Assembly: GCA_038227875.1 (NCBI GenBank) | Contig: JBBRPR010000006.1 | Coordinates: 161,272-225,271 of the forward strand | DNA length: 64,000 nucleotides | Reading direction: 5' to 3' | Source of the DNA: Planctomycetota bacterium | GTDB lineage: Bacteria; Planctomycetota; SZUA-567; H5-PLA8 | Part shown: positions 3,169-47,444 of the stretch, one piece after another | How the letters are laid out: each line of letters begins with the position of its first letter | Position numbering within the stretch: position 1 is the stretch's first letter | Program-made: the position numbers and the translations under genes | The notes under the pieces: generated by a model | Database searches by the model: none | Told to the model about the DNA's origin: nothing | What the model saw: the letters and a program-made list of their open reading frames with translations, nothing else

Positions 3169-5337
3169 TCAATTATCTTTTCCTTCAATATCGCACACGT
3201 CGTCGTCCGCGGTCCGCAAGTGCACGCCACACTGCCACCAGCCCGTCGTCTGATCGCAATGCATCACCATCAGATGCTCGCCGGCAGTGAGGTGCTGCTG
3301 TGAGGTCCCGGGATAGCGGATCGGCGGGCCTTTGCGTTGGCTGCTGTAAATATGTTTACCGTCGATCCACACCATCACCACGTCGTCGCCCATGATCTTA
3401 AATAAGTAGTCGCCGTCTTTCGGCACATCCAGTTTCACCGCGACGTACGCGCGGGAAAAGAAAATGCCTTCGTACGCGCCGCCGCCGAAGGCGCGGTTTA
3501 GATCGTAGAGCCCATAATACGAAATCGCGTCCGACGGGAATGGCTTCCAGGCCAGGCCCTGCGGCGTCGTGCCGCTTTTGGGCGAAAGGTATTCGGCATC
3601 GGTAATCGACAGGTCCTTGTCGTGTGGCCGCTCGATGGGACCCAGGAATTCCGCGGGGAACGGTTTGACCACGGTGCTCTCGCGCACGACTTTCTGCTCT
3701 CCGCCGCGCGTCGTCAGCGTCACAGTCACGCGCATCTCCCGCGCCGGCAGATTCGCGGGCACCGTCAGCGCGATGGGGAATTCCTGGATCGCCGCGTTCG
3801 GATCGAGCTGGATGTCGCGATGTACTTTCACCAGCGCCCGGCCGCGGCCGGGATCGAGTTCCGCATCGAGGCTCGCCGGACTGTTCAGCTTGCCAAAGTT
3901 CTGCACCCACGCGCCGAAGTCGGCCGTCTCGTCTTTTAGAATTCCCATCGACCGTCGTGTCAGCAGCAGATTCAACGGCGGCCGTTCCGGAACGACGGCC
4001 GGCCCGCGATCGCCGCCGCTTCCACCCTCGTGTGATAGCCAGAACTGCGCGAGCGTCAAACCGTCCTGCATGAAATGGAGATGCAGCTGGTGCCAGCCTT
4101 TTCCCAACGCAACCGCACCGCCGCGCCAATCGGCAGAGTACCACTCGAACGGCTCGCAGCCGTTGTGCCCCAGGTCGGCGTAGACACCGTCGTCGAGCGC
4201 CGCCTGCGGATAGTTGGAACACTTCGTCGCCTCGGGGAGAATCATCGCGTGCAGCGAGTAGTATCCGGGCCGCTCGACTTTGAAATCGTAGACGACTTCG
4301 CTTCGCTCATCGTTGCGGTGAAGTCCATGAAAATCGCCGACGCCCTCTTGCTGCCCTTCCAGATCGCCGGCGCCCTCGCGCGTATGCAGACCGATGCGCG
4401 GATGATTTTTCGACATCCACACCCACTCCCAGCCGTAGCTCATGCTGCGCAACGTGGCCGGATCGATCACGATCGCGCCGGGGTGTTGCAGCGCGCCGTC
4501 ATCCAGTTCCGGCACCTCATGAGCGGGATACGAGAGCACCGAATTCGAACGCTCGGGAATCTCCAACGGCCCGGCGACGTTGTCCGGCGCAACGCGTTCG
4601 ACTACGCGCGGAGGAGTCAGCAGCTCTTCAGTCGGCTGAATCGGTTCCAGCGTCGGACGCGGAGCGACTCTCGCTACTTGAGTGGCCGACGATGCTAGCT
4701 TCATGCTTTCCCGCACCACGGCTTCCAGAAATGGCTGCGGAGAGAGCCCCAGGCTCGCGATCGCGCTGGAAAATTTCTGCGCGCGATCCGTTTCGTTGGA
4801 TGCTTTGAGCGTCAAGTACGCGCGCGCAATTCCAAATCCGCGCGGCACGCCGGACATCGGCGCATAGGCCTGCGTGAGCAGCCAGCGCGGCCGGGTCTCG
4901 GTTGGACTGGCGGGAAGAATGCCGAGTTCCAATTCGTGAAATTCGTCGCTGCCGCCCTCGAAACAAAGTGAAAAGCGTGCGCGAAGTTCGTCGGCCGTGA
5001 TCGCCTGAACGCCCGGCGGAATTGCCCCGGTCGCCATCGCCTGGCGCCGCGCCGATCGCGCGAAATGCTGCGCACCGCCGAAAATCAAGACGCTGATCAG
5101 CGCCACACCCGCCAGACCCGCGCCGCGAATCCGCAGGCGGAACGCGAGACAACCGGCCGCGACCACGAGCATCCATGCGATTTCCAGCAGCATCGTCCCC
5201 CGCCAGATTCGCCCGAAGACCGCGCCGTCGACTTGACTCCCAAACCACAGATCGACCGCGCTCAATACCAGCAGCACCCCCGCCACTGATCGAGCCACGC
5301 TGGTTGGGGATGTTTTCGGCACAAGAACCTCGGGCAA
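3169..5337 (-). CDS. Membrane-anchored protein with carbohydrate-binding-like and PA14-like beta-sandwich domains
   Basis: Three N-terminal hydrophobic segments, a Pro-rich linker, a CBM-like segment (YDFKVERPGYY...LGKGWHQLHL) and a PA14-like C-terminus (GDYLFKIMGDD..VWIDG..LTAGEH). Start codon uncertain. Confidence 0.6.
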   Translation of the reverse strand: MPEVLVPKTSPTSVARSVAGVLLVLSAVDLWFGSQVDGAVFGRIWRGTMLLEIAWMLVVAAGCLAFRLRIRGAGLAGVALISVLIFGGAQHFARSARRQAMATGAIPPGVQAITADELRARFSLCFEGGSDEFHELELGILPASPTETRPRWLLTQAYAPMSGVPRGFGIARAYLTLKASNETDRAQKFSSAIASLGLSPQPFLEAVVRESMKLASSATQVARVAPRPTLEPIQPTEELLTPPRVVERVAPDNVAGPLEIPERSNSVLSYPAHEVPELDDGALQHPGAIVIDPATLRSMSYGWEWVWMSKNHPRIGLHTREGAGDLEGQQEGVGDFHGLHRNDERSEVVYDFKVERPGYYSLHAMILPEATKCSNYPQAALDDGVYADLGHNGCEPFEWYSADWRGGAVALGKGWHQLHLHFMQDGLTLAQFWLSHEGGSGGDRGPAVVPERPPLNLLLTRRSMGILKDETADFGAWVQNFGKLNSPASLDAELDPGRGRALVKVHRDIQLDPNAAIQEFPIALTVPANLPAREMRVTVTLTTRGGEQKVVRESTVVKPFPAEFLGPIERPHDKDLSITDAEYLSPKSGTTPQGLAWKPFPSDAISYYGLYDLNRAFGGGAYEGIFFSRAYVAVKLDVPKDGDYLFKIMGDDVVMVWIDGKHIYSSQRKGPPIRYPGTSQQHLTAGEHLMVMHCDQTTGWWQCGVHLRTADDDVCDIEGKDN

Positions 5338-8324: not shown

Positions 8325-8906
8325 TTACTGTCCGGCTTCGTCGAATTCCGAAAATCGCACGGGCAGGTCGCTGCGGTTAATGGCAATGCCGTCGGCGAAA
8401 ACGCCGAGCACTGCTGGCCCCGCTGTATGGATCGTGTGCTTTACATAGACCACAATCTCGCTGCTGTTGCGGACCACAGAGTCAATTGTGTACCAGGGCG
8501 CAGCATCTCCCGTAGTGACCATCACCACCGCCATCTGCCTCTTGAAATCCACGTTGCTCCAGCGTGCGAAGCATTGGTTCTTTGATCCCAAATACGAGTT
8601 GAAGGCTTCGGCGTTGCGGAAGACGAACGTGCCGCGGGTCAGGTCGCTGCCGTTGGGCAGTTTCAGATTCCAGTGGATCTTCATGGGCACGGCGTTCGGA
8701 ACGACTTCGCGCGGACGCAATGTTTTCTCGGCGGATGGTTGAGCAATTTGCGGCGGCGGCAAGGGCTGAGCCTGCTCGTGCGGCGCCACGGTGGCACTGT
8801 CGACTTCCGGATGCAGATCCGAGTAGGGCACCGGCTCCTGATGCGCATACCAATACAGCGCCGCCGCGATGGCAAGCGTAACGATGACAACGTTGCGAAT
8901 TTTCAT
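8325..8906 (-). CDS. Membrane-anchored hypothetical protein, PrcB C-terminal-like domain
   Basis: N-terminal TM, Pro-rich linker, and a VDFKRQMAVV...YTIDSVV segment reminiscent of PrcB_C. Confidence 0.55.
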   Translation of the reverse strand: MKIRNVVIVTLAIAAALYWYAHQEPVPYSDLHPEVDSATVAPHEQAQPLPPPQIAQPSAEKTLRPREVVPNAVPMKIHWNLKLPNGSDLTRGTFVFRNAEAFNSYLGSKNQCFARWSNVDFKRQMAVVMVTTGDAAPWYTIDSVVRNSSEIVVYVKHTIHTAGPAVLGVFADGIAINRSDLPVRFSEFDEAGQ

Positions 8907-8921
8907 GTGCTGACCGCCAAT

Positions 8922-8961
8922 AAAAAGAGTGCCGTAAAAGGGTCTTCTGATATCGGCACTC
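8922..8961 (-). terminator. Possible intrinsic terminator
   Basis: GAGTGCCG...CGGCACTC stem with a T-run on the minus strand, downstream of 9042..10757. The loop is large. Confidence 0.35.
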
Positions 8962-9041
8962 AGGCGGGGCGCGGCGGACTGCTTAGTTCAAATTTCATAG
9001 GAGTTTCAGCAGATATTTTTATCGGACAGTCGCGCGCTATT

Positions 9042-10757
9042 TTATTCGTAGCGGATCTTGAACACCACGCCCAATCCGCGGCAGTGGGGACAGCGGTAGG
9101 TGGTGTGCGTATCATCCTGCTCAACGCCGTACGTGCCTTTGCTGTCGCAATGTTCGCAGGGCACTTCCACCACGCTCTTCACGCGGAAAATGTGCTCTGC
9201 GGCAATCGCGCGCAGAATTCCAATCTGCGTCTCGGCACTCTGATGTTCCCACCACACGTTCGGATCGTCGCTGGTTTCCGCGAGCCAATCCTTATCCGGC
9301 TTGGACGGCTCCTGCGGTCGCGCACCGTCAATGAACAGCGGCTTGGATTTTGCGCCCGGACGCAGCCAGCTGCCTTTGCCGTAATTGGCTTCCTGAATGC
9401 TGCCGTAATTGGCTTCGACATTCAATTTTCCGTCTTCGTAATGGCCCCTGGCCCCGGTGATGCGGCTGTCGAAAATCTCGAGCGCCTTCTCGTCGCTGAT
9501 GTTCATTTTCGTGGCCAGTGCCGAGATCAGTTCCGCCTTCAGTCCTGTCCGCTTTTTCGTGTTGGTGGCGTAGTCGAGTATCTGATCGTACGTCGGCCGG
9601 CGCACGTCGGACGTGTCGCCGGTTTCGAGCTGGATGTCGACCATCGCCAGAATGTCCTTCTGGGAAATGCTCAATTCCATGTCGCCGCACTTCAGGCCGA
9701 CGTAGCCGGAGAATTCCGCCTTCGTCTGCGTGCCGCGGAAGATGTCGCCGTGCGTGGTCGTGATCTGCTTGCCGGGTATGGCGGGGACGAGATTGCCCTT
9801 GGCGTCGAGCTTGTAACTGCGCATCACTTCCTTGTCGCAGAGATTAAGGAAGATCTGATACGAGAGCGGAATGAGGTTGCGCTTGAGCTCCTGCCGCGCG
9901 CCGGCTTCAATTTTGGCGCGCATCGCATCCCAGCGGCTCTTGTACTCCGAGTTGGGAAAATTGCGGTCGAGCTTCGCGAGGATGTCGCTGGCCTCCAGCC
10001 AGTTTTCAGTCAGCTTCGCGTGCTCCAGTTCCTGAAACACACGCATGGCCGAGCGGCGCGCGTCCTCGTTGAGCACCATCATGCGGAATTCAGACTGTGT
10101 CTCGCGGGTGCGCGGATCGATGATCTCCGCGCACTTCAGGTTATCGAGCGCTTCGTGGTAGAGCTCAATCTCCGCGCAGCGCTTAGCCAGCGCCAGGTAC
10201 GCGGCGGCGTCATTGGCGGCGGGTGGCTTCTGCGTCAGCCAGCGCTGGTAGACTTCCTGCGGCGTGTAGAAATCGCATTCGTACGCGTCGAGGGGTTCTT
10301 CGGTCTGAACGTCCTTCTCGGAAATCAGCAGCAGCGGTGCGCCGCAGGTTTTGAAGGCGCGATGACCGTAGGCATTGCGCTCGGGCATCGGCAGTGCGAC
10401 CAGTTCTTTGCCGCTGGCCAGATGCACCCGCGCGCCGCGGACCTTCTCGCCCCAGACCGTCCGTCCGTCGTGCTCGTCGAGGCCGAAGTACTTCTTGACG
10501 CGGCGACGCTCGTTGGACTCCAGGTCCTTCCAGAACAGTTCCACCGTCTGCCCGGTGTCGCTGAGTTTCATGCGAAAACTCTTCTCGGTCGCCGGCAGCA
10601 CCCGCGTCCCGGAAATCGGCAGCCCGCCGATGACCACTGTCATCTCTTCGGCTTGAGGTGTGGACGTGGAATTCTGCGGGCTCGTCAGCGTTTCAGCCGA
10701 CAACGCGCGTAAAGCCATTAAGGCCAGCACGATAAGAATGGGACAGCGGTGATACAT
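9042..10757 (-). CDS. Secreted hypothetical protein with TPR-like helices and a C-terminal DnaJ-type zinc ribbon
   Basis: Signal peptide, helical repeats, and CEHCDSKG...CPHCRGLG at the C-terminus. Confidence 0.75.
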   Translation of the reverse strand: MYHRCPILIVLALMALRALSAETLTSPQNSTSTPQAEEMTVVIGGLPISGTRVLPATEKSFRMKLSDTGQTVELFWKDLESNERRRVKKYFGLDEHDGRTVWGEKVRGARVHLASGKELVALPMPERNAYGHRAFKTCGAPLLLISEKDVQTEEPLDAYECDFYTPQEVYQRWLTQKPPAANDAAAYLALAKRCAEIELYHEALDNLKCAEIIDPRTRETQSEFRMMVLNEDARRSAMRVFQELEHAKLTENWLEASDILAKLDRNFPNSEYKSRWDAMRAKIEAGARQELKRNLIPLSYQIFLNLCDKEVMRSYKLDAKGNLVPAIPGKQITTTHGDIFRGTQTKAEFSGYVGLKCGDMELSISQKDILAMVDIQLETGDTSDVRRPTYDQILDYATNTKKRTGLKAELISALATKMNISDEKALEIFDSRITGARGHYEDGKLNVEANYGSIQEANYGKGSWLRPGAKSKPLFIDGARPQEPSKPDKDWLAETSDDPNVWWEHQSAETQIGILRAIAAEHIFRVKSVVEVPCEHCDSKGTYGVEQDDTHTTYRCPHCRGLGVVFKIRYE

Positions 10758-25535: not shown

Positions 25536-26087
25536 CTATTTCCATATTTCAGTAAAGACTAAGCCGCGAAGCGCGGCCACCTTTGCGAACTCTACAAAAT
25601 CCGCTGAAACAATTATTTTTGTCTGTAAGAGTTGCGGCACGATAAAAATCGAGTGTGCTTCAATTCGCTGATCCAAAAAAGTGAACTTCTTAACGGTTAT
25701 TAGTCGACCATCATCGAACCGCGGCCCCACGCAACTGTCTACATCCAAACAATCCACAACACGCGTACAGTTGAAGACGAAATAGGAACCGTCGGAGCAC
25801 TGTACTGGGAGAATTTCACCGTTTGAAGTGAGATGGTTTCCTAGCGCTGTTGTTGCTCGTTCCGAGAAAATGGGAAACCCGATAAAGGACGTTGGATAGT
25901 CAAGCGAGTGCTTGCTCTTCTTGGTGCCACGCGCGTTTTTAACGACGCGCTTGATCTCTAGTCCATTCCACCCTTCCGCAATCGGCTTTCCATTGAGCAA
26001 TTCCAATACCCACGAAGCATCCTCCTCTTTTGCAAATACGATGCTTGTCGAGTTTGAGTGGTCTGGCTCAAGCAGGAATAGTTTCAT
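25536..26087 (-). CDS. Imm11/DUF1629-like immunity protein (orphan)
   Basis: PIFSERA...GEILPV...YFVFN..RVVDCLD...IF.VP...IIVS..F.E......L.GL.F..IW pattern; DNA is visibly AT-richer than its neighbours. Confidence 0.75.
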   Translation of the reverse strand: MKLFLLEPDHSNSTSIVFAKEEDASWVLELLNGKPIAEGWNGLEIKRVVKNARGTKKSKHSLDYPTSFIGFPIFSERATTALGNHLTSNGEILPVQCSDGSYFVFNCTRVVDCLDVDSCVGPRFDDGRLITVKKFTFLDQRIEAHSIFIVPQLLQTKIIVSADFVEFAKVAALRGLVFTEIWK

Positions 26088-26929: not shown

Positions 26930-27161
26930 GGGTGGCGGTGCTGCTTTCTTAGAAAAGAGGTTGGCGGTTGAATCGTGCTCTATAAGGTAGCGCAAATGCG
27001 CAAGTGCGCCACGCACTGGCGCACTATTTCGCAGGTCAGAGTCCGGAATATTCCGCCGAGGTAGCCTGTTGAGCATAATGCCAACGGTCGCCGCGCGGCT
27101 ATTAAACCGCGCCGGCGTTTTCGGAGGGGTCGGGCCAGATCAGGAGAGTTCAGGAGAAATC

Positions 27162-29549
27162 ATGAAACAGCTCGCTCTGTTGTGCGTGCTTGCGCTATTA
27201 AGCGCCGCCGCGTGGGCAGAAACAATCAATGTGGACGCCGGAGCCAACCGCCGGCCGATCGATCCCCGCATCTACGGCGTCAACAACGCCGCGCAGTCGC
27301 AAGTCAGTGATTTAAATGTCACAATCAACCGCCAGGGCGGCAACAACACCAGCCGTTACAACTGGCTGCTCAACGCCGACAACCGCGCCAAGGATTACTT
27401 TTTCGAAAGCATCGGTTATCCCAGCACCGTGGCCGGCGAACACGGCGACACACACATTTCCGGAACAAAGGCCGCCGGCGCGGAACCGATGGTCACGATC
27501 CCGATGCTCGACTGGGTCGCCAAGCTGACTCCCGCGCGCGATATTCTGCCGAGCTTCTCCGTCGCCAAGTACGGCGCGCAGCAGTACACCGATCCGTTCA
27601 ACGCGGACTACGGCAACGGCGTGAAACCCAATGGCTCGTTCATTGCCGGCAACGATCCCAACGACGCGAACGTGGCGTCTGACGTGAATTTTCAAGCCAA
27701 TTGGATCAACCACATCATCGGAAAATTCAACCCCGCGGCCAACGGCGGCCTGCGCTACTACATGCTCGACAATGAACCGGGCCTCTGGCACTCCGACCAC
27801 CGCGATGTCCATCCCATCGGCGCGACGATGGTGGAAGTGCGCGACCGCATGATCAACTTCGCCACGAAGATCAAAGCACTCGACGCCAACGCGACGGTGA
27901 TCGGTCCGGAAGAGTGGAATTACGAAGGCTACTTCTTCAGCGGATACGACGAACAGTACCGCGCTGCCAACGGCTTCAACAACGCGCCGGACAAGATGTC
28001 GCACGGCAACATGGATTGGCTGCCGTGGCTGCTCGATCAGCTTCATCAGAAGGACATGATGAGCGGCCAGCGGCTGCTGGACATCTTCAGCGTGCATTAC
28101 TATCCACAGGACCGCGGCGACAACGGCGTGCTCTTCAGCGACGATGTCACGCCCGCAGTCCAGGCGCGCCGCAACCGCGCCACGCGTTCGCTCTGGGATC
28201 CCACTTACCTCGACGAATCGTACCTCGGCGACAATGGCGAAAAGATCAATCTGATTCCGCGGCTGAAGGGCTGGGTCAACCAGTACTATCCCGGCACGCT
28301 GGTCGCCGTGAACGAGTACAGCTTCGGCGCGGAGGGCGACATCAACGGCGCCACCGCGCAGGCCGATGCCATGGGCATCTTTGGTCGCGAAGGCCTCGAC
28401 ATGGCCTGCCGCTGGGAAGTACCCGGCACCGGCACGCCGGCCTACAACGCAATCAAAATGTACCGCAACTACGACGGCGCGAAGTCCACGTTCGGCGAGA
28501 TCAGCATCAAAGCCGACGTGACGCAGCCCGACAACCTCGCCGCATTTGCCGCGGTACGTACCAGCACCGGCGAGCTGACGGTAATGGTGATCAATAAGAT
28601 CGCCGCGGATACCCCGGTCGCAATCAATCTGGCCAATTTCACGCCCGGCATCTCGGCGCAGGCCTGGCAATTGACGGCTGCGAACACGATTTCCCGATTG
28701 GCCGACGTCAACATGGCCGGCACGACGCTGAGCACCACGGTGCCCATGCAGAGCATCACGCTCTTCATCATTCCGACGTCGTCGGGAACGCCGGGAAACA
28801 ATCCGCCGGTGATTCAGTCGACCGCAACCGCGCAGCCCAACCCCGCGATCACCGGTCAGTCGATCAGCTTCAACGTGGCCGCCACCGACGCGGACGGCGA
28901 TGCGCTGACTTACGCTTGGAATTTCGGCGACGGCACTCACGCTGCGACGGCGCAGGCCACTCACAGTTACAGCGCCGCCGGCAATTACGCAGCGACCGTG
29001 ACGGTGATGGATACGCACAGCGGCGTGGTCATCAGTTCCGTGAATGTCACGGTCACTGCGATGGGATCGGGGGGAAACGGCGGCGGCACGTCCGACCCCA
29101 CTATCCTCCAGGTGAACAAGCTGAACATTGGGCTCGCGTTCACATCTCAGAGCAAGGATACGCTGCAACTTTCCGCGTCGCTGCCGAGCCTGCCGGCGGG
29201 ATTCACGGCCACTGGAAAAATGTTGATCTTGAATCTTAACGGAATGCCGTTCCCCTACGTTCTCGACGCGAAGGGAAAAGGAAGCGCCAACGGCGGTTCG
29301 GCCATGCTGCAGTTGAAAGGCAAACGCGATCCGAAAACGAAACTGACGCTCTTCCCCGGCGGGAGCGCGCCGCTGAGCATCCGGCTGAAAGGCGCGAACC
29401 TGGCGGACACGCTGGATGTCGACGCCACAACGGAAAGCGGCCCAATCACCGAGCATCTCGAGATCATCCTCGATGGCGTGACGTACGCGGCGGACGTTCA
29501 GGCTGGCTACATCGCCAAGAGCGGCAAGAGCGGAAAGCTAACCAAATGA
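27162..29549 (+). CDS. Secreted glycoside hydrolase family 44 (endoglucanase/xyloglucanase) with PKD domain and conserved C-terminal domain
   Basis: Signal peptide, RQGGNNTSRYNW, LDNEPGLWH, VHYYPQ, NEY and PKD (YAWNFGDG) motifs; AGGAG SD. Confidence 0.92.
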   Translation: MKQLALLCVLALLSAAAWAETINVDAGANRRPIDPRIYGVNNAAQSQVSDLNVTINRQGGNNTSRYNWLLNADNRAKDYFFESIGYPSTVAGEHGDTHISGTKAAGAEPMVTIPMLDWVAKLTPARDILPSFSVAKYGAQQYTDPFNADYGNGVKPNGSFIAGNDPNDANVASDVNFQANWINHIIGKFNPAANGGLRYYMLDNEPGLWHSDHRDVHPIGATMVEVRDRMINFATKIKALDANATVIGPEEWNYEGYFFSGYDEQYRAANGFNNAPDKMSHGNMDWLPWLLDQLHQKDMMSGQRLLDIFSVHYYPQDRGDNGVLFSDDVTPAVQARRNRATRSLWDPTYLDESYLGDNGEKINLIPRLKGWVNQYYPGTLVAVNEYSFGAEGDINGATAQADAMGIFGREGLDMACRWEVPGTGTPAYNAIKMYRNYDGAKSTFGEISIKADVTQPDNLAAFAAVRTSTGELTVMVINKIAADTPVAINLANFTPGISAQAWQLTAANTISRLADVNMAGTTLSTTVPMQSITLFIIPTSSGTPGNNPPVIQSTATAQPNPAITGQSISFNVAATDADGDALTYAWNFGDGTHAATAQATHSYSAAGNYAATVTVMDTHSGVVISSVNVTVTAMGSGGNGGGTSDPTILQVNKLNIGLAFTSQSKDTLQLSASLPSLPAGFTATGKMLILNLNGMPFPYVLDAKGKGSANGGSAMLQLKGKRDPKTKLTLFPGGSAPLSIRLKGANLADTLDVDATTESGPITEHLEIILDGVTYAADVQAGYIAKSGKSGKLTK

Positions 29550-36451: not shown

Positions 36452-39307
36452 ATGAATCCACGACGCGCCGGCACCCTCCTCCTCACCTTTATAGTGTGGC
36501 AGTCCATCTGCGCGGCGGAGATCGACGAGTTCGCGGTCAAGCGCGAGGCAGTCTTCGAATTCGACGAGAAGCCCCGCGTCACGGCCAAAGAGCAGAAAGC
36601 ATTTGAAATCACCTTCGCGTCAAAGGGTTGGTGCGATGCCACCGTCGCAATTGAAACGGCCGATGGAAAGATTCTGCGGCACCTCGCCAGCGGCGTGCTC
36701 GGGCCCAAAGCGCCGGAACCATTTCAGAAGGACTCCAAGAAGCAGTCACTGCTCTGGGACGGCAAGGACGATCGCGGCAACTACCCGACAGATGAGGTCG
36801 TCGTTCGCGTTTCGCTGGGCTTGAAAGCGAGCCTGGAAAAAACACTGCTGTGGGATCCGCGCAAGCGCGCCTCGAACGGCTGGGGCGGCGCCAACGCGCC
36901 GATCATGAAGTCCGCGCCGGAAGGCGTGTACGTTTACGATGCCGGCGGAGAAGACCATCTGCGGCTCTTCGATCACGACGGCAATTACGTTCGCACCATC
37001 TATCCGTTTCCCTCGAACAAGCTCGATGCGGTCGTCGGCTTGCAGACGCACACGTTTCCGCACGACGGCAAAACGCTGCCGTGGAAGGCCGGCTTTCTGC
37101 AGTCGACGCTGCTCTTTGGCAAAAACGCGAAGCCAATGCCGACGCGCGGCGAGAACGGATTCGACGCGACGTCGATGGCCATCGCCGGAAACCACATCGC
37201 TCTGGCCGGCACCTACATCAGCCGCCTGGCGACCGACGGCTCAACCGGCGGCATGAATCTGGCCGGACCCAAAGTTGTCGTCCACGCCGAGATGCACGGC
37301 GCCAACCAGAGCACCGGACACGATTCGACGGTGCGGCCGTGCTCGGCGGCGCTCAGTCCGGACGGTAAATCGCTCTATCTGTCCGGCTACCTGTGGCGCT
37401 ACACCTGGCACAACGATTCGTTTCACGGCGTGACGCGCGTAGCGATGGACCAAGATGGCGAACCGCAGCTCTTTGCCGGCAGCATGAAGCAGGACGATGC
37501 GGGCACGGAGAACGGAAAATTCCGCTGTGCCGTCAGCGTCGCCTGCGACAGCCAGGGGCGCGTGTACGTGGCCGACCACATGAACGACCGCATTCAAGTT
37601 TTCTCGCCGGACGGAAAATTCCTGAAAGCGATTCCTGTCTTCCGGCCGGCGGTGGTCTGCGTTCACCCCAAGAGCGGCGAGATCTATGCGTTCTCGTGGG
37701 TCGTCAACAATCGCTTTACATTGAAACTTGCTGAAGAGCGGCAGAAGGCATCGCAGCCGCCGATCACCATCGAACCCAAACTCGTGAACCTAGGGACCTT
37801 CGACGCGCCCAAAGAATCCGGGAGCTTTCCCCTGCCCTTGCCAAAATTCGGCGGGGCGTACAGCGAGTGGTACAACAATCCGCCGATCCAGACCGTGGGC
37901 GACGTGGATTTCAACACCGAGCCGCCGACGATCTGGATCTCTCAATCGACCAGCGAGAATTTTAAAGGCGAATGGGACAAGCTGGGCATTCAAGTCCTGC
38001 GGGAAAAAGGCGGCAAGCTGGAAGTCCTGCGCGATTTTGGAGCGGACGCCGCGCAATCCGTTGCGCGCGCAACGCCCGCGATGCTCGACCGCCAGCGCCT
38101 GTACGTGAATCCGAAGACTGAAAAGCTCTACGTGGCGGAAGCCGATTCCGGCGTCGGCAAGTCGTTCAAGGAACTGCTCGAAATCGATCCGGTTTCCGGA
38201 CAGGTCAAGCGCGTGCCGCTGCCCTATGCAGCCGAAGACATGGCCTTCGACAACGAAGGCGCCATCTATCTGCGCTCCGACAATTGCGTCGTGCGCTACG
38301 ATCCCAGCACCTGGCGCGAAATTCCGTGGGACTACGGCGAGGAGTCCGATCACGTCTCATTCGACGGCGGGTCCCCCACCGCGATGTCCGCGCTGGTGAC
38401 GCCGGGGCACCGCTCGCCGTCCTTCTGGCACATGGGCGGAATGTACGTCAACGCGCAGGGCTACCTGGCGATTGCCTGCCCCAATGTCACCGAGAATTTT
38501 TCGGCGGTGGCCGGTGAAGAAAACAAGAAGGATGTGGCGGCGCGAAAAGTCTACGCGCCGCGAATTTATCCCGGCCGTCTGCAATGGGGCGAGATCCACA
38601 TCTTCGACAAGCACGGAAAGCTCATCGCTGACGATGCGTTTCCGGGCATGGGGCACATGAATGGCATCGGCATCGACACGGCCAACAATGTTTACGTCAT
38701 GGCCAACGGCAAGCGCTTGATCGACGGCAAGTCGTACGATCCGAACGCCGCCGACGATCTTTCCGAGACCGTGACGAAAGTGAAATGCCGCGCCGCGAAG
38801 GTGCTGAGCAGCAACTCTACCCTCCTCGCGCCGCTGGCCGAAGCCGCAAGGCCCAAGCGCGCGCCGGATTTCGAAGGATTCCCGAATGGCGCCTCGTGGA
38901 TCGAAGGCGCGGAGTGGTTTTACGGCGGCGTCGGCTATACGGGCAACGCGGCGTGGGATGGCGGCGGCTGCCGCTGCTGGAACGCGCGCTTCTGCCTCGA
39001 TTACTTCGCCCGCTCGTTTGCGCCGGAAACACGCCACTTCAGCGTGGCGGTGCTGGACGCCAATGGGAATCTGATTCTGCGTATCGGAAAATACGGCAAC
39101 GTGGACGATGGCACGCCCATCGACGCGAAAGGCGGACCGCCAACCACGCGGTCGATCGGCGGCGACGAAGTCAGCCTCTTTCACGCCGCATACCTGGGCA
39201 CGCTCTCGGATCGCCGGCTGTACATCGCGGATGCCGGCAACGCGCGAATCGTCAGCGTAAAACTGGGATACGTTTGCGAAGAGAGATTGACGGTGAAGGC
39301 GAAGTAA
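36452..39307 (+). CDS. Large secreted NHL-repeat beta-propeller protein with FlgD-Ig-like N-terminal domain
   Basis: Signal peptide, WDGKDDRG, and NHL repeats (VACDSQGRVYVADHMNDRIQVF; LYIADAGNARIV). Confidence 0.85.
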   Translation: MNPRRAGTLLLTFIVWQSICAAEIDEFAVKREAVFEFDEKPRVTAKEQKAFEITFASKGWCDATVAIETADGKILRHLASGVLGPKAPEPFQKDSKKQSLLWDGKDDRGNYPTDEVVVRVSLGLKASLEKTLLWDPRKRASNGWGGANAPIMKSAPEGVYVYDAGGEDHLRLFDHDGNYVRTIYPFPSNKLDAVVGLQTHTFPHDGKTLPWKAGFLQSTLLFGKNAKPMPTRGENGFDATSMAIAGNHIALAGTYISRLATDGSTGGMNLAGPKVVVHAEMHGANQSTGHDSTVRPCSAALSPDGKSLYLSGYLWRYTWHNDSFHGVTRVAMDQDGEPQLFAGSMKQDDAGTENGKFRCAVSVACDSQGRVYVADHMNDRIQVFSPDGKFLKAIPVFRPAVVCVHPKSGEIYAFSWVVNNRFTLKLAEERQKASQPPITIEPKLVNLGTFDAPKESGSFPLPLPKFGGAYSEWYNNPPIQTVGDVDFNTEPPTIWISQSTSENFKGEWDKLGIQVLREKGGKLEVLRDFGADAAQSVARATPAMLDRQRLYVNPKTEKLYVAEADSGVGKSFKELLEIDPVSGQVKRVPLPYAAEDMAFDNEGAIYLRSDNCVVRYDPSTWREIPWDYGEESDHVSFDGGSPTAMSALVTPGHRSPSFWHMGGMYVNAQGYLAIACPNVTENFSAVAGEENKKDVAARKVYAPRIYPGRLQWGEIHIFDKHGKLIADDAFPGMGHMNGIGIDTANNVYVMANGKRLIDGKSYDPNAADDLSETVTKVKCRAAKVLSSNSTLLAPLAEAARPKRAPDFEGFPNGASWIEGAEWFYGGVGYTGNAAWDGGGCRCWNARFCLDYFARSFAPETRHFSVAVLDANGNLILRIGKYGNVDDGTPIDAKGGPPTTRSIGGDEVSLFHAAYLGTLSDRRLYIADAGNARIVSVKLGYVCEERLTVKAK

Positions 39308-42413: not shown

Positions 42414-45400
42414 CTACTTCGCGCTGCCCGAAAGGCCTTTCTTGGCCGTGTACGAAACGGTCTTCGTCGCGGCGTAAAAACCGTTGTTGAAGAGCACGAT
42501 CGCGTTCACCGTTTTGCTCACGGCCGTCTTGATGTCCGCGTCGCCCGTCAGCCCTTCGTCGGACAGGCTCGCGGCGAGCGTTGCCTTGGTCAGCTTCAGG
42601 ATCAGCTTCGTCGAACCGTTCTTGGGCTTGCCCATCGTCAGACCCTTGGTGGTGCTCTTGCCCTTGGCGTCCAACGTGAACGATTTGACTATGCCGCCGA
42701 CGTCGACGACCACCGTCTGGCCGGCCAGCGTCGCGGTACCAATGTCCAGCGTCGCCGAGAACGTCAGGCTGTCGTTAAGCGTGGTCTTGGCGAAGTTGAG
42801 CTTCGCCGCCAGAGTCACGCCGCTGAGCGACTTCGACGTTCCCGCCGCGGCGTTTCCGGTGAAGGGCGTCGAGCTGGCGCTATTGGGATCGGTACCCAGC
42901 GCTGTTTCGAGTTCATCGGGGAAGCCATCGCCATCGGAATCCGTAACCGTTCCGCCGGATGTGCCGCTGGCGGAGTAGAGCGCGAACGAAGAAGTGTTGC
43001 CGCTGTCGTCGGTGAGCGTCGCGGTGATGTTCTGCGTCGTATCCGCCGCGACATCCGTGGTGAAGGTCAGGTCCGATCCCACGCTGGAACGGCCGAGCAG
43101 CAGCGAACCCTGATCGGACGAATCGTTGAAGACTTCGATCGTTCCCGTCGTGGTCGCGGTGCCGATGACCCGCACCGTGGACGTCGCGCGCGACGCGGTG
43201 TCGGCGCTGGTCGTGAGCGTCATCACTTGCGAAATCGTCGGCGCCTTGATGCCATTGTTGCTGCCGTCGAAGAGCGTGATGCCGCCGCGCTTGTTCTTGC
43301 CGATGGCGTTGCCGCGCACGGTGTTCTTCTTGGAATTGGAGGTACGGACTTCAACGCCGTTGCCGCCGTTGTTGGCGATCGTGTTGCCTTCGCCGGACGT
43401 CGATCCGCCCGCCTGGGTGCTGGTCGTGCCGCGGGAGATAAACATGCCGGCGCTGCCGTTGGCGACGGCGCTGCGGCTGCCGATCGAATCGTCTGCGCGC
43501 GAGCCAACGCCGCGCGACGCAGTCGTCGTCGTTACGGCCGACGCACCGACGATGTTGCCAACGATGATATTGCTGTCGGAGCCGGACCCGGAGACGGTAA
43601 CGCCTTCGAAGAAGTTTCCGCTGATAACATTCCCTTCACCCGACGTGCTGCCGCCGATGGTATTCTGCGCCGCTCCAGCCTGCAGAATGATGCCAGCGAG
43701 ATTCGGCTGCGACTGCAGACCGCCGGCGTCGAGGCCGATCCAGCAGCCCTTGACCACGTTGCCGGTGGCGTTAGGGCCGGTGATGTTGATACCGAACGCG
43801 CCGTTGCCGGCCAGCCGCAGACCCTGGCCATTGACGCCCGTGCCGGTGTTGCGATTGCCGCCGATGATATTGTTGCTGGCGTTTGGTCCGACACTGATAC
43901 CAGCAGAGTTGAAATTGATGATTGAGAGATTGAAGACCTGGTTTCCGTCGGATTCGAACGACAGGCCGCTGGCCGAACCCGCAGCGGCACCGTTGACGGT
44001 GACACGGAGGCTGCTGGCGTCGATGGTGACGGCCCCGTGATTGAGATGCGGCAGGTCGGCCTTCACGTTAATCACCGTGGCCGCGTCGGAATTGTCGAGT
44101 GCGAAGACGACGGGGTCGAAGGTGATCGTGTCGCCGTGGCGGGCGCGGGCCATGCAGTCTCGCAGCGAATCCTGAACCGGCATCGATGGCGGAGCGATGT
44201 CCTGGGTATTTTTCACAATCAGCGTATCGGACACGGTCGTGAGAGTAATATGGAACGTTTGCACAGCGCTTAGATCATGGCCGCCATTGGCGGTTCCACC
44301 GTCGTCCTGGAGTTGTACCGAAACGAGGATCGGCGTCGCGGAATCGGAGCGGTTGGACGGCGTGAACGTCAGCGTTCCCGACGTGCTGATCGCAGGCTGC
44401 ACAAGGAACTGGTCTGTAATTGCTGCGGTGACGATGAAGGTTTTCACCTTCTGCGTGCTTTCATTGGCCGGCCCGAAGACGATGCCGGAAGCAAAGTTGG
44501 CAATCGTCTGTGCAACCGGCGCTTCGCTGCAAGTCACGTCCGGTCCGAGGACGAACGTCGGCGCGTGATTGACGGGATTGACTGTGACGTTGAGCGTCAC
44601 TGAGGTTGTATTCAAGGAGAGTGGCGATGACCCGCTGTTGTCCTTCACCGAGATGATGATCTGTACGAATCCATTGGCGTTGGTGACCGGTGCGAAACTG
44701 AAACTACCGGTGCCCGCCGCGAGATTGGTGCTGACGACAATCGGGTTGGCAATGAGATTGGCGTTCGTCGAAACGGCCGTCACAAGCAGCACCGGCGCGC
44801 CACTGAGCGGACCGGCGCTGATGCCGGTTAGATTCACGGTGGTGGTGCCCGAATCTTCATTGATCGTGATCGGCGGCAGCGGATCGATGGTCGGCACATT
44901 ACCGGTGTGAACGGTGAAGCGGAACGACGCGATGCTCCCGACGGCAATGCTCGACGCTCGACCAAACGAGCCCGCGTTGTTAGCGGTGGCCAGCGTGGCT
45001 GAACTGCCGGTCGCGGCAAAAGCAAAGAGCGTGTGAGGGCCGGGCGTCAGCGAGGTCAACGGCGCGGTGAACGGACCGGAACCGCTGGCAGCCGTCCATG
45101 ATTTTTCCGTGGAGTCCACCTGGTAGTAATACTTGAGCGCACCGCCGCCACTGAGCGTAAACGTCGGCGCGTTGTCGAACGACAAGGCACCAAGAAATGC
45201 GACTGGCGCGGTAATAGTCGTGGTTGGCGGCGCAAAATCGGTCTTCTCCACGTCGATCACGCGGATGGGCGCGCCACCGACGTAAACGCGGCCGGTGGCG
45301 GGATTCACCGCGATTGCATTCCCTGTCGCTCCACCCGGAATTGTCACAGTGGCCACCGAGCCGGAGATGCCGTCGATCACTGCGACTTGGTTGGTATTCA

Positions 45401-47444
45401 GCGAAACGTACGCTCGTTCAGTAACGGTGTTGACGCACAGATCCGTCGCGTAATTCGACGAACTGGCGCTGAGTGTGCCGGAATTGACCGCCGTGTTCGC
45501 TGAGTTGGAATTGACCACGCGGTACGCATTGGAGCTGGGGCTGACCAAGTAGACGCGGCCGCTGTTGCCATCGGCGGCGACGATGTTGTTCGACACGGAA
45601 TTGCCGGTGACCGATTGCGTGAAGTTGGTCGTGCCATCGATCGAATCCAACACTGCCGAGTCAGTGAACGTGACGAAAATGCGGTTGGCGACGCCATCCA
45701 CGGCAATGCTCGCGGGATTTCCCGACAGCTGAATCGGATTGGCCACTCGGAAATTGTTGGCGTCGTAGACGAAAAGCTCACCCCCGTTGTTGCCCACGCC
45801 GCGGCAGGCCACGTAGTAATTATTGTTGACCGGGTTGACCGCGACCAGCGCCGGGTTGCCCTCGGGCACCGAAAAGGTGCTCAGCACTGCGTTGGTTGCG
45901 CAGTTGATGACCGAAACCGTGCCGGCACTGCCAGGCGGCCCGCCCATCGTGGCATTCGCCACGTACAGACGGCCCAGCGTCTGATTGACAGCCAGCGCCG
46001 TGGGCTGCGATCCGACTGCAATGGTCGTGGCGACTGGTGAAGCAGGTGTGGCGAAGTTGATGGCTGTCACCGCGTTGCTGTTGAAATCGGCGGTGTAGGC
46101 GGTCTTGTTCAGTTCATTGACGACCAGTACCTGTGAATTCACGCCTACCGCGGCCGTACCGAGAACCGTCAGCGGATTGGACGACGCGCCATCGATAATC
46201 GAAACGCTTCCCGCAGCCGAGGGTTGGCCATTCAAAGCGAAAATGAGATTCTGCGCGGAGCTCACGGCAATCTTGGTCATGGCATTGACGTTGGGCGTCG
46301 TCGGCAAAGCCAACAGCGAGGCCCCGTCGAACTGCAGTAGTTTATTGCCGACGTTATCCAGCACATAGAAGCGGTTGGTGACGTTATTGACGCTGATAGC
46401 CGTCACCGCCGAGCCTTGTACGGCGGCCGACGTCGTCGTTTCGTTGCCGCCATCAATAATCCCGATGGCGGGAATGGAGGTGGCTGAGTAGCTGAAATAA
46501 ATCTTGTTCGCGGCCGTGTTCACAGCCAGGTCGACGCCGACTCCGGCAAACGTATTGATGTTCATGAGAATCGAATCATCGGGTTTAAGAATCTCGATGC
46601 TGCCGGTTGCAGTCGCAATATACACCTTGCCTGTATTGGGATTGACGGCGATCGACTGGACGCTATTCGTTCCGCTCAAAGTCTGGTTTGGAGAGGCCAG
46701 CGTTGTTCCACCGATGATCGAAATATTGTTTCCCGGGCTGGCGGCAGTCCCGCCGACGTAAACCTTGCTGCCGGGATTCACGGCCAGTAAGAATGGACCC
46801 GAGACGGTTGCCGGCGTCGCAATCACAGTGTTCGCCGAACCGATAACCGAAACGGTATTGGAACCAGAATTCGCGACGTACACATTGCCGCTGACCGGTT
46901 CCAGTGCGATGGCCAGTGGGCTGGTGCCCACAGTTACAGTTGTAATCGTGGAATTGACGTCGTTGGTCGTATCAAAAATCGAAACATTGTTGTTACCCAA
47001 ATTCGTAACATACAGTTTGTTGTTCGCGATGTTTATCGTGGCTGCTGTCGAATTGGATCCGCTGCCGCAGGACATCGTACCCACTACGGTGTTGGTTGCA
47101 CCATTGATGGCCACCACGCCACCGCCGCTGGTTCCGCCACGGCACACCACGTAAATGCGGTTGGTGAGCGGATTGATCACAATCGATTCGGGCCCCGTGA
47201 ATGGCGCCATCGAAAGGCCGCCGCCTTGAATCAGCGGCGTGAATGTCGAACCATCGAAAACTTGAATCAGGTCAGGTGAGCCTGGCAGCGAAATGTAGAT
47301 GCGGTTCGTTACCGGATTGACGCCTATACATTTAGGTCCACCGGGGAGAGGAAAACTGCCCGTTTGGGTTTCGGCCTGAGCCCAGACGGCGGTGCCCGCG
47401 AGCACGATTAATCCCAACGTATGCAGAACACGACTATGCCACAT
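42414..47444 (-). CDS. Very large secreted surface protein: YVTN/YncE beta-propellers, Ig/cadherin-like repeats, right-handed beta-helix, DxDxDG motif, conserved C-terminal domain
   Basis: GGAGG SD before ATG 47444, signal peptide, repeated VNPxTNRIYV, 'VNPVNHAPTF', SLRDCM, IGGxxxGEGNVISGN and DSDGDGFPDELE motifs. Confidence 0.9.
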   Translation of the reverse strand: MWHSRVLHTLGLIVLAGTAVWAQAETQTGSFPLPGGPKCIGVNPVTNRIYISLPGSPDLIQVFDGSTFTPLIQGGGLSMAPFTGPESIVINPLTNRIYVVCRGGTSGGGVVAINGATNTVVGTMSCGSGSNSTAATINIANNKLYVTNLGNNNVSIFDTTNDVNSTITTVTVGTSPLAIALEPVSGNVYVANSGSNTVSVIGSANTVIATPATVSGPFLLAVNPGSKVYVGGTAASPGNNISIIGGTTLASPNQTLSGTNSVQSIAVNPNTGKVYIATATGSIEILKPDDSILMNINTFAGVGVDLAVNTAANKIYFSYSATSIPAIGIIDGGNETTTSAAVQGSAVTAISVNNVTNRFYVLDNVGNKLLQFDGASLLALPTTPNVNAMTKIAVSSAQNLIFALNGQPSAAGSVSIIDGASSNPLTVLGTAAVGVNSQVLVVNELNKTAYTADFNSNAVTAINFATPASPVATTIAVGSQPTALAVNQTLGRLYVANATMGGPPGSAGTVSVINCATNAVLSTFSVPEGNPALVAVNPVNNNYYVACRGVGNNGGELFVYDANNFRVANPIQLSGNPASIAVDGVANRIFVTFTDSAVLDSIDGTTNFTQSVTGNSVSNNIVAADGNSGRVYLVSPSSNAYRVVNSNSANTAVNSGTLSASSSNYATDLCVNTVTERAYVSLNTNQVAVIDGISGSVATVTIPGGATGNAIAVNPATGRVYVGGAPIRVIDVEKTDFAPPTTTITAPVAFLGALSFDNAPTFTLSGGGALKYYYQVDSTEKSWTAASGSGPFTAPLTSLTPGPHTLFAFAATGSSATLATANNAGSFGRASSIAVGSIASFRFTVHTGNVPTIDPLPPITINEDSGTTTVNLTGISAGPLSGAPVLLVTAVSTNANLIANPIVVSTNLAAGTGSFSFAPVTNANGFVQIIISVKDNSGSSPLSLNTTSVTLNVTVNPVNHAPTFVLGPDVTCSEAPVAQTIANFASGIVFGPANESTQKVKTFIVTAAITDQFLVQPAISTSGTLTFTPSNRSDSATPILVSVQLQDDGGTANGGHDLSAVQTFHITLTTVSDTLIVKNTQDIAPPSMPVQDSLRDCMARARHGDTITFDPVVFALDNSDAATVINVKADLPHLNHGAVTIDASSLRVTVNGAAAGSASGLSFESDGNQVFNLSIINFNSAGISVGPNASNNIIGGNRNTGTGVNGQGLRLAGNGAFGINITGPNATGNVVKGCWIGLDAGGLQSQPNLAGIILQAGAAQNTIGGSTSGEGNVISGNFFEGVTVSGSGSDSNIIVGNIVGASAVTTTTASRGVGSRADDSIGSRSAVANGSAGMFISRGTTSTQAGGSTSGEGNTIANNGGNGVEVRTSNSKKNTVRGNAIGKNKRGGITLFDGSNNGIKAPTISQVMTLTTSADTASRATSTVRVIGTATTTGTIEVFNDSSDQGSLLLGRSSVGSDLTFTTDVAADTTQNITATLTDDSGNTSSFALYSASGTSGGTVTDSDGDGFPDELETALGTDPNSASSTPFTGNAAAGTSKSLSGVTLAAKLNFAKTTLNDSLTFSATLDIGTATLAGQTVVVDVGGIVKSFTLDAKGKSTTKGLTMGKPKNGSTKLILKLTKATLAASLSDEGLTGDADIKTAVSKTVNAIVLFNNGFYAATKTVSYTAKKGLSGSAK

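Follow-up and report, generated by a model that had tools for sequence, protein, structure and literature searches.

A large family of cationic, immunoglobulin-like C-terminal domains on secreted proteins of Planctomycetota, with a possible role in electrostatic surface retention

Within a 64,000-nucleotide stretch of a Planctomycetota genome (hereafter the window; contig C6, positions 161272-225271, of a 9.34-Mb assembly with 176 contigs and 59.6% G+C), two secreted proteins, a glycoside hydrolase of family GH44 and a YVTN/NHL beta-propeller protein, end in homologous domains. These domains belong to a real, large and so far unnamed and unannotated family of about 140 amino acids, which is a new family within the known kind of C-terminal localisation domains. 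Most likely, the domain fixes where its carrier proteins sit on the cell. As to how, we tentatively favour the reading that it is a self-sufficient, mainly electrostatic surface-retention module, and the evidence for this reading, as well as the alternatives, are the focus of this report.

The first of the two proteins consists of a Sec signal peptide, the GH44 catalytic domain, a PKD domain, a linker and the C-terminal domain, in this order, and the second combines YVTN/NHL beta-propellers with immunoglobulin-like (Ig-like) and beta-helix-like regions, a bacterial thrombospondin type 3 (TSP3) repeat and, last, the C-terminal domain (Table 1). The longest open reading frame (ORF) of the GH44-PKD gene comprises 826 codons from a TTG at position 27069, the likely start being the ATG at 27162, and its product matches the Pfam families Glyco_hydro_44 (E = 1.8e-62) and PKD_4 (E = 8.6e-17), with only a partial EpsB-like GH44 match from NCBIfam on the GH44 region. 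Positions 29103-29549 of the plus strand encode the last 148 residues of this protein, which ends in …YIAKSGKSGKLTK before the stop codon at 29547-29549, and the propeller protein ends in …YTAKKGLSGSAK before its stop codon at 42414-42416. In a single BLASTP comparison the two tails share 39 identities over 129 positions (30%; E = 4e-7), and a profile of the family made from this genome scores them at 116.9 and 85.0 bits over nearly their full length. Their similarity is real homology, far beyond chance. A first-pass annotation of this DNA had described collinear homologous tails on these two proteins, and all the strings that it quoted were found in both translations. It had also assigned Sec signal peptides to both, and those read from the translations, MKQLALLCVLALLSAAAWA/ETI and MWHSRVLHTLGLIVLAGTAVWAQA/ETQ, are typical of the Sec scheme of a basic residue, a hydrophobic core and AxA.

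The domain falls within no described family. Neither window copy was matched by Pfam-A or NCBIfam at E<=1 beyond noise, and none of the matches among 29 aligned members (alignment A1) was meaningful; models of dockerins, SLH domains, LPXTG signals and autotransporter barrels gave no match at this threshold, either with the window copies or with the 29 members. The ESM Atlas returned only unnamed clusters as neighbours, the commonest phylum among them being Planctomycetota. Public annotations of carrier proteins read 'hypothetical protein', 'PKD repeat protein' or 'MBG domain-containing protein'. In the literature, at the level of titles and abstracts, which is not proof of absence, no description of such a domain was found. 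The earlier expectation that the domain would resemble no known sorting signal and would lie outside the described families is thus borne out.

The family is large already in this one genome, for which completeness is estimated at 88% and contamination at 4%. A genome search with a single sequence gave 72 places at E<=10, and an iterative profile search of all six-frame ORFs of at least 80 amino acids, run to convergence, gave 102 ORFs with the domain, 34 of which were already found in the single-sequence first pass. Together, these ORFs (median length 998 amino acids, on 61 contigs) make up 105,071 residues or 3.7% of the coding capacity, and their genes are mostly scattered, with another domain gene adjoining only nine of the 97 called genes. 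In 96 of the 102 ORFs, no more than 15 residues separate the end of the domain from the stop codon. In the other six it is followed by a further beta-rich extension of about 170-180 amino acids, which is not a second copy of the domain (hhalign probability 0.19%). By a crude rule, 83 of the 96 domain ORFs with a complete 5' end start with a signal peptide, against 31% of other long genes, a comparison which is only indicative, since the search windows differed between the two groups.

The six proteins with the extension lie at C20:110099-113404, C51:7485-10841, C124:5940-9245, C28:41170-43755, C10:82272-84065 and C3:241958-243742. A PKD domain precedes the C-terminal domain in four of them, and several start with an apparent uncleaved membrane anchor. 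The extension has a basic tail at its end (…KVWKIR) and matches no Pfam family; one more ORF, on contig C43, was matched by it. At C100:8796-10449, a domain gene is broken into two overlapping ORFs of 451 and 124 amino acids, each with part of the domain, which is a frameshift or an assembly error.

Beyond this genome, the profile of alignment A1 was searched against 1.84 billion cluster representatives and matched 2398 of them at E<=1e-3 and 1700 at E<=1e-10. A re-scan of 149 of the 150 best listed public matches, the window's own protein being omitted, placed the end of the domain within 15 residues of the protein end in 147. In the remaining two (P0012 and P0050), a normal …GGKFKK or …SAKKGKG ending is followed by junk-like sequence, as if a stop codon had been lost. 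Proteins with two copies are rare: the public protein P0152 has a copy directly behind the signal peptide and a second one at the C-terminal end, and a 498-residue protein from a distant planctomycete family (locus L196, G415:C2:4641500-4661400, gene 8924-10420) has tandem copies at residues 208-342 and 356-492.

Among 41 genomes, namely the window's genome and 40 relatives, 17 contain matches to the domain. Of the 16 genomes from the same family, 14 are positive, each with 1 to 84 places, as are both genomes of one other family of the same order; the single genome of another family has none, and four other families of the same class, represented by 21 genomes, are also negative. When the phylum was sampled evenly, 31 of 401 genomes were positive, adding seven further families with low copy numbers, and these counts are lower bounds, with nine candidates scored per genome. 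One homologue is labelled Planctomycetota by NCBI. Overall, one family of Planctomycetota has the domain in abundance, and in the rest of the phylum its occurrence is patchy.

The carrier proteins differ widely. Two sets were scanned for known domains: 27 genome proteins with a terminal domain, taken from the top of the score ranking with the longest proteins, fragments and the window's own omitted, and 57 public proteins picked mainly by length from the 150 best matches. Their enzymatic cargo comprises GH44, subtilisin-like and papain-like peptidases, beta-lactamase-fold proteins, GDSL and alpha/beta hydrolases and glucose/sorbosone dehydrogenases (GSDH); structural and binding cargo comprises right-handed beta-helices, NHL, Kelch and SBBP propellers, LamG, CBM6/35 and PA14 domains; and the repeats comprise Calx-beta, cadherin-like, He_PIG, fn3 and PATR. 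The C-terminal domain usually follows a PKD domain, a TSP3 repeat or a Gly/Thr linker, with PKD found upstream in 23 of the 27 genome proteins and 46 of the 57 public ones, and TSP3 in seven and twelve, respectively. The first-pass annotation had predicted many copies rather than only two, an extreme C-terminal position, signal peptides on the carriers and diverse cargo, and the genome-wide and public counts agree with it on each of these points.

Long (Gly-Thr)n or Gly-rich linkers of low complexity, with up to about 40 residues, stand upstream of 11 of 96 domains (e.g., C5:231840-234509 and C120:3-614). Short DNA repeats encode both kinds of linker, whose length could thus vary by slippage.

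The succession of a PKD domain and a C-terminal beta-domain recalls the PKD-PPC tails of secreted proteases, and the flexible Gly/Thr or TSP3 linker before the domain would also suit a transient helper, i.e., a C-terminal pro-domain like the bacterial pre-peptidase C-terminal (PPC) domain, which would help the protein to fold, stay soluble or remain latent in the periplasm and would then be clipped after export. PPC (PF04151) is likewise a beta-rich C-terminal domain that follows PKD in secreted enzymes; the planctomycete domain, however, is larger, cationic and not restricted to peptidases. A significant PPC match was not obtained (one of 29 members, at E = 0.58), most of the cargo is not proteolytic, and a helper of this kind would leave the strong selection for lysine charge unexplained. 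We consider this explanation very improbable.

Composition, and above all charge, is the most informative property of the domain. The median isoelectric point (pI) of the domain is 10.16, with a pI above 9 in 92 of 94 copies and a median net charge of +11, and the 400 residues upstream have a median pI of 4.66. Among other proteins, the last 145 residues have a pI above 9 in only 25%. Public homologues behave in the same way (pI above 9 in 140 of 149; upstream median pI 4.31), as do 11 of 15 copies from other families. Lysine accounts for 9.0% of the domain, compared to 1.7% of the cargo and 4.5% of the proteome, the ratio of lysine to arginine is 4.4 in the domain versus 0.63 proteome-wide, and glutamate makes up only 1.0% of the domain. 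Lysine or arginine is present in at least 50% of sequences at only three profile columns and in 30-50% at 14 columns, so that the charge is conserved in aggregate and not at fixed contact sites. The bulk lysine charge on acidic cargo is clearly under selection. A D16 / FTLDAKG loop is among the conserved elements of the domain.

Such a charge could also serve binding outside the cell's own surface. In this alternative, the domain would be a substrate- or particle-binding module, either a new carbohydrate-binding module (CBM) or an adhesion module for anionic polymers or particles of the environment, such as acidic polysaccharides, humic matter or minerals. A CBM-like beta-sandwich fold and size, the strongly cationic character and a W...W motif in 18 of 96 copies are in line with this, as are weak, non-significant profile matches to CBM35 chains of esterase D in the PDB (E = 0.42-0.55). 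No Pfam CBM matches the domain, and its generic beta-sandwich would be compatible with a new CBM. However, the aromatic motif is missing in the other 78 copies, including both window copies, and an extreme C-terminal position in 94-99% of cases is not what one would expect of a CBM. Furthermore, the cargo has no common substrate, ranging from beta-lactamase-fold, papain-like and subtilisin proteins to GSDH, GDSL lipase and propellers, and the domain is found alongside genuine CBM6/35 modules, which argues that it is not simply the substrate-binding module of an enzyme. Overall, we regard a binding module of this type as improbable. The family has sub-types: a TSP3-like motif upstream of the domain occurs in 20 of the 96 copies and never together with the W...W motif.

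The domain is predicted to adopt an Ig-like all-beta sandwich without a specific structural relative. AlphaFold2 models of two divergent members reached a mean predicted local distance difference test score of 95.5 (copy 1) and 95.4 and are all beta, with ten to twelve strands, ten of them in copy 1. A profile search of PDB sequences gave one significant match, to the Ig-like repeats of MpAFP region II (E = 2.4e-05), covering profile positions 14-56 only, and weak extra partial matches of the family profile fall on Ig-type repeats of the cargo. This similarity to bacterial Ig-like repeats places the fold and not the function. Foldseek found no PDB structure at E<=1e-3, and the matches from VIA-align were all generic Ig-like sandwiches, headed for both models by 1xo8 (LEA14; Z 6.7, root-mean-square deviation 3.0-3.1, 108-109 residues aligned), where a Z below 8 may mean only a common arrangement. 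The luminal domain of TMEM106B followed at Z 5.8. Pfam LEA_2 does not match the domain.

The reading that we tentatively prefer, a self-sufficient surface-retention module, would combine these features as follows. Mostly acidic multidomain proteins, about 100 per genome in one family of Planctomycetota, would be exported by Sec, and the positive charge of the domain would subsequently hold the acidic cargo, enzymes as well as adhesin-like repeats, on an anionic layer of the envelope. Candidate layers are lipopolysaccharide, an acidic exopolysaccharide or a peptidoglycan-associated polymer, and the binding would be non-covalent and mainly electrostatic. The analysis shows the family, its place in the proteins, its cargo, charge and fold class, and that T9SS and exosortase parts were not found; the binding, its target and the surface location of the cargo are inferred. 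Cargo such as PATR-repeat passengers, subtilases, GH44 and CBM6/35 proteins is surface-displayed in other bacteria. The tandem and double copies of L196 and P0152 fit avidity-type binding modules, and no dedicated partner was found near 97 domain genes or in 16 loci from genomes with few copies. The first-pass annotation had proposed a secretion or surface-anchoring system; the diffuse lysine charge and the rare tandem or internal copies lean towards a binding module and thereby favour the anchoring half of this proposal, but not the half that takes the domain for a translocation signal.

Functional parallels would be the GW modules and SLH domains of Gram-positive bacteria, likewise basic non-catalytic terminal modules, sometimes in tandem, which need no dedicated sorting enzyme to keep a range of exported proteins on anionic envelope polymers. 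Unlike these, the planctomycete family lacks a Pfam match and is an all-beta, Ig-like domain of a diderm bacterium, nearly always in single copy.

Several points weigh against retention by charge. Binding modules are usually less strictly terminal than this domain (96 of 102 ORFs here and 147 of 149 public proteins), whose position resembles that of true sorting signals. The last residue is lysine in only 58 of 94 copies, yet the distance from the tail to the stop codon is never more than a few residues. With a best Z of 6.7, the structural matches are generic and point to no binding site. The proteins could also stay in the periplasm and not cross the outer membrane at all. Finally, the neighbour and co-occurrence tests have low power, as they involve one full genome and few independent lineages.

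Some of these points would be better accommodated if the domain were the address tag of an undiscovered pathway of outer-membrane export or covalent attachment, in which an outer-membrane translocon or attachment enzyme of Planctomycetota would read the C-terminal lysine tail or link it to the envelope. Such a system would be an analogue, made of unrelated parts, of the C-terminal domain (CTD) of the type 9 secretion system (T9SS), and the tag might subsequently be cleaved off or joined covalently. The near-obligatory terminal position, the signal peptides, the very diverse cargo and the conservation of a basic tail at a fixed distance from the stop codon all speak for this explanation. The type A CTD of the T9SS (TIGR04183/Por_Secre_tail) of Bacteroidota is similar in several respects: it stands at the extreme C-terminus of signal-peptide proteins with diverse cargo, and its copy number is of the same order, with 145 tails in one Bacteroidota control genome. 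It is a small Ig-like sandwich, often behind PKD, Ig or fn3 spacers, and an Ig-like sandwich is also predicted for the planctomycete domain. In the T9SS, PorU cleaves off the tail, and the cargo becomes attached to anionic LPS. The T9SS tail differs in length, with about 70-90 residues versus about 140 and ten strands in the planctomycete domain, and in charge, since the median pI of 24 sampled T9SS tails is about 6.4 versus about 10, so that the extreme charge of the planctomycete domain is not shared by the T9SS tails sampled. There is no sequence or profile similarity between the two, hhalign giving a probability of 0.15% for the family alignment against these 24 tails, and the 50 structural matches listed contained no T9SS tail, which does not mean that there is none.

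The genomes likewise provide little sign of a dedicated apparatus. SprA and PorV (TIGR04189 and NF033710) had no match in three domain-rich genomes (G000, i.e., the 88% complete genome of the window, as well as G001 and G008), and both models gave strong matches in two Bacteroidota genomes that served as control. The tail model TIGR04183 had one weak internal match in the window's genome, compared to the 145 tails of the control. With no tail-model match at the C-termini, no SprA or PorV found and a null profile comparison, membership of the T9SS was rejected. Exosortase (PF09721) was also without a match in this genome. As T9SS type A tails at C-termini were likewise not found, no other known C-terminal tag system was seen, a point that speaks for an address tag.

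Recurrent partners were not found near the domain genes either. Within four genes on either side of 97 domain genes, no gene family was convincingly enriched: the best neighbour families are small (three of three and three of five members; uncorrected p at least 7e-4), and those that recur, FecR anti-sigma factors, FAD_binding_4 oxidases and a protein with a weak GH127-like match, are not machinery. At the 16 loci from low-copy genomes no neighbour family was common to more than two. In five relatives without the domain, orthologues of the GH44-PKD protein were not found at E<=1e-20, a search that is uninformative on what replaces the tail.

A type II secretion system (T2SS) was the only candidate to track copy number. 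The genome has nine secretin genes, one of which closes a canonical T2SS operon with the order gspE-F-G, minor pseudopilins, K, M and D (locus L205; Table 1). Close orthologues of this secretin (55-64% identity) are present in all eight other relatives with at least 32 domain matches, in none of eight relatives with 1-19 matches and in none of 24 without any. In the phylum sample, however, only three of the 31 domain-positive genomes have a secretin match at E<=1e-40, leaving 28 without one, and the domain is missing from 58 of the 61 genomes that have one. The secretin thus tracks one clade and not the domain, and the Gsp-type T2SS was rejected as dedicated machinery. For the L205 secretin, relatives of 50-54% identity are present in other planctomycete families but were not found in closer kin, a pattern suggestive of horizontal acquisition by one clade.

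The earlier claim of a secretion system with its machinery elsewhere in the genome is therefore not upheld, as neither T9SS or exosortase parts nor enriched neighbours were found and the T2SS candidate failed the phylum-wide test. An address tag would also sit uneasily with the six copies that are followed by another domain of about 170 residues and with the rare proteins that carry two copies. The little power of the co-occurrence tests keeps this explanation in play; on balance, we consider it unlikely, if the least unlikely of the three alternatives to surface retention.

Two further kinds of C-terminal tag were compared with the domain. The GlyGly-CTERM/rhombosortase and PEP-CTERM/exosortase systems are also based on lineage-restricted tags at the C-terminus of many secreted proteins, but these tags consist of a short motif, a transmembrane helix and a basic tail and are processed by a dedicated membrane enzyme, whereas the planctomycete tail is a folded, soluble domain of 140 residues without a hydrophobic helix. 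Dockerins resemble the domain in being C-terminal tags on dozens of otherwise unrelated secreted enzymes, namely those of cellulosomes; they are small, calcium-binding helical modules in contrast to the all-beta model, Pfam dockerin does not match, and no cohesin-like partner was identified.

FecR-type anti-sigma genes adjoin three domain genes (C4:82884-84131, C32:47597-49159 and C36:70337-72556) and represent three of the five members of their sub-family in the genome. This hints that some of the exoproteins with the domain are under the control of extracytoplasmic function (ECF) sigma factors.

How large exoenzymes and adhesin-like proteins are placed on or outside the unusual diderm envelope of planctomycetes is poorly understood. 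By means of the domain, much of the surface or secreted proteome of this lineage, about 100 proteins per genome, can be defined computationally. The domain also offers an experimental handle on its ligand or reader, and a family model would improve the annotation of about 2,400 protein clusters, which at present carry labels such as 'hypothetical' or 'PKD repeat protein'. Were machinery to exist, this would be a sorting system not described so far. Otherwise, the family would provide a case of surface retention by charge in a diderm bacterium, and the domain could be of use in biotechnology as a display tag.

Table 1. Coordinates of the two domain-bearing genes and their parts in the window, and of the type II secretion operon elsewhere in the genome.
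Feature	Position	Strand	Basis or remark
GH44-PKD gene with cationic C-terminal domain	27162..29549	+	translation; order signal peptide-GH44-PKD-linker-domain
Sec signal peptide MKQLALLCVLALLSAAAWA of GH44-PKD protein	27162..27218	+	from translation; cleavage expected before ETINV
GH44 catalytic domain	27378..28109	+	ORF residues 104-347; Pfam
PKD domain, directly upstream of C-terminal domain	28800..29030	+	residues 578-654; Pfam
Gly/Ser/Thr-rich linker (…TAMGSGGNGGGTSDPTILQ)	29031..29111	+	translation; family-wide linker composition
Copy 1, cationic C-terminal domain (predicted Ig-like), 145 amino acids	29112..29546	+	BLASTP, profile, alignment
YVTN/NHL propeller gene with cationic C-terminal domain	42414..47444	-	Pfam, NCBIfam, translation
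Sec signal peptide MWHSRVLHTLGLIVLAGTAVWAQA of propeller protein, then ETQ	47373..47444	-	from translation
Bacterial TSP3 repeat, just upstream of copy 2	42876..42941	-	Pfam TSP3_bac, E = 4.3e-06, residues 1541-1562
Copy 2, cationic C-terminal domain (predicted Ig-like)	42417..42830	-	BLASTP, profile, alignment
Canonical Gsp-type T2SS operon	G000:C60:33342-44678 (locus L205)		gene order

Elsewhere in the window, a small ORF on the minus strand (25536-26087), directly upstream of the region of the GH44 gene, matches the immunity protein family Imm11 (E = 2.8e-07). Three further, large ORFs, at 3169-5337 (minus strand), 8673-10712 (plus strand) and 36452-39307 (plus strand), encode proteins of 722, 679 and 951 amino acids, respectively, which match no Pfam family at E<=1e-5.

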